The translations under genes were made by a program, and so were the position numbers. From a virus (Duplodnaviria; Caudoviricetes), in the IMG/VR virus record IMGVR_UViG_3300011423_000008, positions 7,760 to 71,759 of that record: a stretch of 64,000 nt of DNA, one strand, 5' to 3'. Positions 48,845 to 49,000 of the stretch are shown here, piece after piece. Below the pieces are notes generated by a model. That model did not search any database. It was not told the origin of the DNA and saw only the letters and a list, made by a program, of their open reading frames with translations. Position 1 is the stretch's first letter; every line of letters starts with the position of its first letter.

Positions 48845-49000
48845 TGAACATAACGGGAGTTGAACCCGCGCTACGAGCTATAACGCCCGTTAATTAATTT
48901 TAGTTTCATCTAAAAATACTAAGCTTCCAGAGTCTAGAATTGTCGGCTATTCATTAAAGACTATAATTAATTAGAATTGCTACCGCTACAACATACGCTC
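48845..49000 (-). ncRNA. oversized tRNA-like RNA (156 nt) with G3-U70
   Basis: GAGCGTA/TATGTTC + A; D arm with GG; GCGGG-TTCAACT-CCCGT; inserted branched domain. Confidence 0.75.

Follow-up and report, generated by a model that had tools for sequence, protein, structure and literature searches.

What kind of gene has the ends of a tRNA and the acceptor mark of an alanine tRNA and, in place of the arm that would read a codon, a long helical domain? The question is raised by a 156-nt element at positions 48845–49000 on the minus strand of a 64,000-nucleotide stretch of DNA from a virus of the Caudoviricetes (this whole stretch is hereafter called the window). The window is part of the 71.7-kb IMG/VR virus record IMGVR_UViG_3300011423_000008, a partial genome, and the element lies inside a cluster of tRNA genes. 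Comparison with a homologue in a related phage leads us to suggest that it encodes a functional small RNA, one that has the frame of a tRNA but does not decode, likely a decoy or aptamer that displays an invariant module to a host or phage factor, an explanation to which we give an even chance of being correct.

The predicted RNA is a chain of five helices in the order of a class-II tRNA, namely acceptor, D, long arm, short hairpin and T. G1 lies at 49000 and the discriminator base A73 at 48845, and the terminal CCA is not encoded. The acceptor stem is formed by the 5′ strand GAGCGUA (48994–49000, with G3 at 48998) and the 3′ strand UAUGUUC (48846–48852, with U70 at 48848), which together give seven pairs, G3-U70 and G5-U68 among them. 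Following U8 there is a short D arm of the class-I type, UUGU-AGCGGUA-GCAA (48977–48991), with four pairs, a loop of seven bases, A14 and G18G19. A three-base linker then leads into an insert domain of 83 to 85 nt, closed by a nine-pair A/U helix, UAAUUAAUU/AAUUAAUUA. This insert consists of a long rod, whose 5′ strand (48949–48973) includes UAAUUAAUU and whose 3′ strand (48891–48916) includes AAUUAAUUA, and of an apical module of 32 nt (48917–48948). In the variable-arm position there is an extra hairpin, ACGGGC-GUUAUA-GCUCGU (48873–48890; 6 bp and the 6-nt loop GUUAUA), which the three-base connector AGC joins to the T arm, GCGGG-UUCAACU-CCCGU (48853–48869). The nucleotides of the tRNA elbow are intact. 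A preliminary description of this DNA, made from the sequence alone, had listed the acceptor stem, a retained D stem with its loop, the T arm, the helix closing the insert and the hairpin with a six-base loop, and every one of these parts is present on the minus strand.

In RNAfold, this layout is both the minimum-free-energy and the centroid structure of the window copy. The insert folds, in the window and in the homologue, as a single irregular and unbranched rod of about 21 pairs, topped by a 6-bp apical hairpin. The latter, UUCUAG-ACU-CUGGAA at 48925–48939, makes up the central 15 nt of the module, is preceded by a 6-nt one-sided bulge, and has pair probabilities of 0.87–0.99 in both copies. 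Two internal branches that had also been proposed, AGTCT/AGACT and TTAGT/ACTAA, did not hold up: they are unused in the minimum-free-energy structure, and their partners in the flanks are not conserved in the homologue. ARAGORN calls a tRNA at 48844–49001 if introns are allowed, and the element goes unreported by default ARAGORN and by the Rfam tRNA model. No promoter-like or terminator-like site of the gene's own was found on the minus strand.

The homologue was obtained from the contigs of relatives, which were fetched from public assemblies via the portal protein. It lies at L034:859-1008(-), on a contig (L034, from Logan SRR33230233) whose portal protein is 68% identical to that of the window phage, agrees with the window copy in its parts and in their order, and stands directly upstream of tRNA-Leu(TAG), as in the window. 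Conservation between the two copies is a mosaic. The tRNA frame is 87–96% identical, with 25 of 26 positions unchanged in the 5′ half and 27 of 31 unchanged in the 3′ end, which comprises the T arm, the acceptor 3′ strand and the first bases of the trailer. The mid-insert module at 48917–48948 is identical throughout (32/32), whereas the extra hairpin and the insert sequence on either side of the module are essentially unalignable. For comparison, tRNAs that share an anticodon in the window phage and L034 are 51–77% identical.

The rewritten parts have nevertheless remained paired. In each copy the rod consists of 21 pairs between the flanks of the insert, and in L034 the rewritten 5′ strand is still complementary to its own 3′ strand. 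This complementarity goes beyond that of shuffled sequences (p ~0.04 in the window and ~0.006 in L034), and combinations of strands across the two copies are weaker. The extra hairpin of L034 is CCCC-GUGA-GGGG (4–5 bp), with the stem fully replaced and the loop not conserved, and the T-stem pair 49:65 has changed on both sides, from G-U in the window to U-A in L034. A frame and a module that are near-invariant, together with a rod and a hairpin that are rewritten yet paired, in phages whose tRNAs are only 51–77% identical, thus point to a selected functional RNA. The pattern is the signature of an RNA whose frame and apical module would be read sequence-specifically and whose connecting helices would need only to pair.

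The same comparison bears on decoding. The extra hairpin, with its six-base loop, was considered as a pseudo-anticodon arm and rejected, its L034 counterpart being a 4–5 bp stem with a GUGA tetraloop; because this GNRA-type tetraloop replaces the 6-nt loop, the hairpin is not an anticodon arm. A decoding tRNA-Ala would present a seven-base anticodon loop with an NGC anticodon, and the window RNA is without an anticodon arm. The window RNA cannot decode.

Several observations weigh against the reading of the element as a conserved functional RNA with a displayed module. The gene is absent from L033, the closest relative (portal 73% identical), in which the RNA that neighbours it upstream in the window abuts tRNA-Leu(TAG) directly; it is therefore accessory. 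Exchange from phage to phage, aided by the adjacent homing endonuclease, could partly lie behind the identity of frame and module, in place of long purifying selection, although a recent transfer is unlikely because the divergence of the rod and hairpin is near-random. Only two members of the family were found, so that covariation is not available for the invariant module, whose fold is predicted. The folding energies are modest, with z-scores of −1.95 (window) and −2.94 (L034), and on energy alone the case is weak. Finally, alanylation of the RNA is predicted from identity rules only.

Further members were sought in several ways. nhmmer, run across the window and the collected loci of relatives, recovered the window and L034 copies only. 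Collections of viral and metagenome sequences, scanned with exact and with gapped patterns, returned no further members (the two matches of one scan are ordinary tRNAs adjacent to each other), and none were found by blastn against 50,697 phage records, on the contigs of nine portal relatives, or by a search anchored on two neighbouring small open reading frames (ORFs). The ORF directly upstream of the L034 homologue was considered as a partner protein and set aside, its relative in the window phage lying elsewhere, among early-type genes.

If the element is a decoy or aptamer on a tRNA frame, its life cycle can be sketched as follows. The RNA would be transcribed together with the tRNAs of the cluster, cut at G1 by RNase P, trimmed at its 3′ end and provided with CCA. 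The tRNA frame would confer stability, and alanyl-tRNA synthetase (AlaRS) would probably charge the product through G3-U70 and A73. With no anticodon loop, and with an arm that should be too long for the ribosomal A site, the RNA would not read codons. Its working end would be the tip of the rod, where the invariant 32-nt module presents a hairpin with a 6-nt bulge; as a decoy or aptamer, this module would most likely bind a protein or an RNA, of the host or of the phage, with the frame serving as a natural ‘tRNA scaffold’. We suggest a decoy or aptamer because an invariant bulged hairpin carried on the tip of a spacer helix is what a protein-binding site typically looks like.

The acceptor mark deserves separate consideration. 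G3-U70 in the acceptor helix suffices as an identity signal for AlaRS. The alanine identity pair named in the preliminary description is indeed there, in the form of G3-U70 with A73, and both features are also present in L034. Of the 62 tRNAs that ARAGORN calls in the window and related loci, the sole other one with G3-U70 in a fully paired acceptor is a tRNA-Ala, and the window phage's own ordinary tRNA-Ala(UGC) at 52274–52346 likewise has the pair. The acceptor pair 5:68 is G-U in the window and G-C in L034, whereas 3:70 is G-U in both; the retention of one G-U pair while the other is ‘repaired’ suggests that the alanine mark matters. After CCA addition, the RNA is probably chargeable with alanine, as judged from these identity elements. 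The alanine-marked frame is not derived from tRNA-Ala; its D-arm string is also found in ordinary phage tRNA-Gly(GCC), and the core of the D arm in His-type tRNAs as well. Descent as a recent duplicate of a local tRNA is likewise out, as no close paralogue of the RNA was found among 74 tRNA calls.

Conservation of the mark raises the alternative that charging itself is what matters. The RNA would then be an alanine sink or donor, which ties up AlaRS or feeds a non-ribosomal aminoacyl-tRNA-dependent transferase that the module would recruit or regulate. Such a role would fit an identity pair that is conserved and elsewhere confined to tRNA-Ala in these clusters, as it would an acceptor-and-D half (25/26) more conserved than the neighbouring true tRNAs. 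No candidate transferase was found in the window, however, where most ORFs have zero Pfam match, and the invariant module is not explained by this role alone. We consider the alternative unlikely.

A second alternative starts from the likeness to transfer-messenger RNA (tmRNA), with which the element shares a G3-U70 acceptor, a long helix that replaces the decoding arm, and a conserved internal segment. Its T arm is also nearly identical to that of E. coli tmRNA, in keeping with the local Rfam match given below. A miniature tmRNA or SmpB decoy would be alanylated, would bind SmpB and EF-Tu, and would either enter stalled ribosomes or soak up SmpB; a peptide of 13–14 residues that begins at a GCC codon in the module would possibly be appended, or host trans-translation blocked. 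The conserved G3-U70 and A73 favour this proposal, and so does the local match of the T arm to the tmRNA model. In the evolution of tmRNA, conserved ends and a conserved internal segment are joined by variable helices, and the same arrangement is seen here. Phages with tmRNA genes have been described, among them mycobacteriophage DS6A, whose tmRNA gene comprises the tRNA-like domain only and has been proposed to titrate SmpB (PMC4131195).

Against this stand the scores of the models and programs, the structure of the RNA and the nature of the putative tag. With the Rfam tmRNA models (RF00023 and its relatives in clan CL00001), the window copy reaches 13.1 bits, where the gathering score is 47, at model positions 346–363, which correspond to the T arm only, and the Rfam tmRNA models give the L034 homologue no match at E up to 1. 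Default ARAGORN calls a tmRNA in neither copy, and with the relaxed settings -m -ps80 a call is made in the window copy and L034 is missed. On the grounds of the sub-threshold Rfam score and the silence of default ARAGORN, the identification as a tmRNA was rejected. SmpB occupies the anticodon-arm space on tmRNA, as seen in published tmRNA–SmpB structures. The window RNA, by contrast, has a long helix in that position, and differs from tmRNA further in its full D stem and in the extra hairpin at the variable-arm position; in tmRNA the D loop is reduced and stemless, which makes room for SmpB. Pseudoknots were not evident with RNAfold or RNAalifold, which are blind to them, and the unbranched rod leaves little unpaired sequence; reduced organellar tmRNAs are not known to have pseudoknots. 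No match to SmpB (PF01668) was found in the 71.7-kb record, which is a fragment of a ~213 kb genome; host SmpB could serve as the partner instead.

The supposed tag requires a more careful reading. The preliminary description stated that no tag ORF is present, but an in-frame mini-ORF, GCC...UGA, of 13 codons does sit in the insert (48906–48947, minus strand), and it is this frame that the relaxed ARAGORN call reads, from the second codon (GAC). It has a counterpart in L034, with 14 codons, a GCC start and a UAA end, so that a GCC-to-stop frame is common to both copies. The frame is nonetheless probably meaningless, as the estimated chance of a 13-codon open frame in A/U-rich sequence is ~1 in 3. 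Since the two copies differ only in the last 3–4 codons, L034 hardly counts as independent support. The two peptides end differently (-SIFR and -SNER) and are without the hydrophobic, alanine-rich C-terminus that proteases read; the tag end is thus neither conserved nor protease-like. The first ten codons are identical at 30 of 30 nt, and this complete lack of synonymous change points to constraint at the level of the RNA rather than of coding.

Taken with the evidence above, a miniature tmRNA or SmpB decoy appears improbable to us, and we see only a slim chance for the specific form in which a pseudoknot-free, alanine-charged phage device engages stalled host ribosomes or SmpB and adds a GCC-started peptide or blocks rescue. 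What stands of the interpretation first put forward is that the element is truly a tRNA-like RNA, that it has no arm for decoding, and that its alanine mark is unlikely to be incidental, which makes alanylation a reasonable expectation; the further step, to a ribosome-rescue mimic or SmpB decoy, is unsupported, given 13 bits on the T arm only and a full D stem. The SmpB-decoy idea is not absurd, but it is unsupported here.

A third alternative is that the element is a decaying pseudo-tRNA, that is, a class-I tRNA gene that received an insertion near a homing endonuclease and is now dead. Its absence from the closest relative, the mobile HNH gene that adjoins it and the many odd tRNAs in these clusters would all be in keeping with decay. 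A dead gene, however, would not hold 32/32 and 25/26 identity with compensating changes in its helices where true tRNAs are 51–77% identical, and we judge decay very unlikely.

The least durable alternative is an interrupted decoding tRNA, in which the ~83 nt would be an intervening sequence whose removal yields a class-II tRNA, such as tRNA-Leu(UAA). With the -i option, ARAGORN does read the window copy as a tRNA-Leu(taa) interrupted by a 62-nt intron, and the cluster encodes a putative 2H phosphoesterase domain (RNA-repair type) that would fit such a gene. For the L034 copy, however, the program gives Ile(gat) instead, and its window model comes with a distorted D arm. Every possible single segment was therefore excised from both copies and ARAGORN rerun on each. 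In the window, the commonest call (cta) is an artefact that reuses the D-arm strand as the anticodon stem and so destroys the D arm, and the anticodons frequent in both copies are low-complexity A/U only (aaa, aat); no single excision yields a plausible anticodon common to the two. Pattern searches found no uninterrupted copy of the tRNA frame, and no Rfam match to a group I intron was found in the window RNA. Group I introns are longer than the ~83-nt insert; for the interrupted tRNAs of Lak phages, splicing by proteins has been proposed. The middle of the insert is moreover the most conserved part of the RNA, the reverse of an intron between conserved exons. A precedent exists in the Lak megaphages, whose tRNAs are reported to have ‘enigmatic’ highly conserved introns (Devoto et al. 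2019, PMC6784885). The Lak tRNA genes resemble that of the window RNA in being oversized and in containing an insert of high conservation, but in their case a tRNA type and anticodon were assigned and insert-bearing and insert-free genes were aligned, whereas the window RNA has no anticodon shared between copies and no uninterrupted copy. With ARAGORN calls that differ between the copies and an exhaustive excision that is inconsistent, an intron-containing tRNA was rejected, and we regard it as extremely unlikely.

Simple explanations for the module were also examined. As an antisense sequence to phage genes it has chance matches of 9–10 nt only in the window and related loci. In two scans of 185,579 reference genomes, one pattern had zero matches and the other two single chance matches inside coding regions, and neither gave a repeat array; a metagenome scan gave chance matches in one unrelated gene only. 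The module as a mimic of a clustered regularly interspaced short palindromic repeat (CRISPR) or a copy of host sequence was rejected on these negative scans. A helix between the D arm and the module, suggested by RNAalifold on a MAFFT alignment, was also discarded, being no better than shuffles (fraction ~0.55) and having a pair probability of ~0.01 or less. Finally, a Y RNA of the YrlA type, the partner of Ro/Rsr, in which a tRNA-like module would sit in the loop of a Ro-binding helix made by the two ends, was dismissed: there is no Rfam Y RNA match, no TROVE domain (PF05731) was found in the record, and the ends of the window RNA form an acceptor stem, not a Ro-binding helix.

The genomic setting is a tRNA cluster on the minus strand, in which tRNA genes, small ORFs and HNH homing endonuclease genes are intermixed, bounded by a terminase gene (36101–37972) and an ERCC4-nuclease/portal pair (52918–55863). 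A protein like the portal protein of the window is also encoded on a 213,193-bp contig, which indicates a large phage. The RNA gene is on the strand of the cluster, with tRNA-Tyr(GTA) (49113–49195) on one side and tRNA-Leu(TAG) (48246–48321) on the other. Directly downstream of it, before tRNA-Leu(TAG), lies a free-standing HNH homing endonuclease gene (48311–48814, minus strand; PHROG HNH, 4e-44), which is similar at the DNA level to the HNH genes found in Erwinia phage Cronus and to T5 hegA. This gene is missing at the same spot in L033 and L034, and the gene content is thus polymorphic here.

When the interval 38000–52900 of the window was compared with L038, L039, L053 and L054, the tRNA cluster between the terminase and the ERCC4/portal genes was present only in the closest relatives, L033–L036; in more distant relatives the terminase, ERCC4 and portal genes are nearly contiguous, without tRNAs. 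The cluster thus has the look of an insertion specific to this lineage. Within it, the minus-strand genes at 45041–45454 and 40122–40592 encode a protein with a weak 2H phosphoesterase match (RNA repair, ‘Swiss Army Knife’ type) and one with DUF4326, for which roles in RNA repair or processing among the tRNAs are possible on the basis of these domain matches.

Immediately upstream of the RNA gene there is a 96-nt RNA (49009–49104, minus strand) with a seven-pair terminal stem, GCACCCC/GGGGUGC, followed by G-ACCA. It has three internal hairpins and is without a T loop. The RNA is conserved at L033:5045-5139(-), where 12 of its 25 predicted pairs are changed on both sides, and it looks like another CCA-ended structured RNA, by prediction. 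The adjacent tRNA-Tyr(GTA) (49113–49195, minus strand) has a long variable arm and an odd D region; it was missed by default ARAGORN and by Rfam and found by ARAGORN at a lower threshold, and has homologues in L033 and L034. The ORF at 49107–49421 overruns this tRNA, and its protein relatives, small proteins 83% (L034) and 91% (L033) identical, match only its first ~65 codons.

Other tRNA-like genes of the window are unusual in their own ways. Two further oversized tRNA-framed RNAs, at 2896–3096 and 18974–19154 on the plus strand, have all of the acceptor, D and T arms intact, and their inserts are large and unrelated. Their acceptor sequences differ and are without G3-U70, neither has an Rfam match, and the RNA at 2896–3096 encodes its CCA. 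Three minus-strand cloverleaf tRNAs (49628–49700, 50072–50143 and 44627–44704) have an 18-nt anticodon arm, made of six pairs and a six-base loop or of five pairs and an eight-base loop, and ARAGORN gives two of them ‘anticodons’ of four and two bases. Across 39120–52500 (minus strand), many tRNAs of the window phage and its relatives have a T loop with G54, UGCGA or UGCAA, in place of UUCGA; unlike these, the window RNA keeps the canonical T loop UUCAACU.

The closest known counterparts are small RNAs of phages T5 and T4. The T5 record (AY543070) lists RNA1 (30501–30644) and RNA2 (32959–33083), annotated as ‘tRNA-like stable RNA with unknown functions’, and these, like the window RNA, lie inside a phage tRNA cluster with HNH homing endonuclease genes. 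The fold of T5 RNA1, with acceptor, D arm, long non-decoding arm, short hairpin and T arm, repeats the order of the window RNA, and T5 RNA2 is similar in architecture. There are differences, as T5 RNA1 has a long D loop of the Leu type and A3-U70 where the window RNA has a short class-I D arm and G3-U70, and the T5 RNAs are annotated as stable RNAs whereas the window RNA is predicted from sequence. T4 rnaC (species 1 RNA, 139 nt) and rnaD are likewise small RNAs of a phage tRNA region. T4 rnaC has a canonical T arm after long hairpins, but no clear D arm or seven-pair acceptor in its predicted fold. The biological roles of RNAC and RNAD are still unknown according to a review of T4 (PMC3014915). 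Comparison of the window RNA with T5 RNA1, T5 RNA2 and T4 rnaC by blastn-short gave T-loop-type matches of 11–15 nt only, and the likeness is one of architecture, not of demonstrated descent. The element is thus a new example of the tRNA-like stable RNAs of phages, with the build of T5 RNA1 and a resemblance to T5 RNA2 and T4 rnaC.

A man-made parallel exists in the engineered tRNA scaffold, in which processing and nuclease resistance are reportedly supplied by the tRNA frame. In that system, the anticodon stem is extended and ends in a cargo RNA instead of the anticodon loop (Ponchon and Dardel; PMC3753655). The window RNA differs in being natural, and in having, in addition, a hairpin in the variable-arm position and the alanine identity mark.

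tRNA-shaped stable RNAs without an anticodon have been annotated in T5 and T4 with no function assigned to them. The identity mark found here, G3-U70 with A73, makes this class of RNA more testable, by charging with AlaRS, and the sharply bounded 32-nt module on a freely varying rod shows which part could bait a partner. If that partner is indeed a host defence or translation factor, the RNA would represent a new phage counter-measure built on a natural tRNA scaffold.

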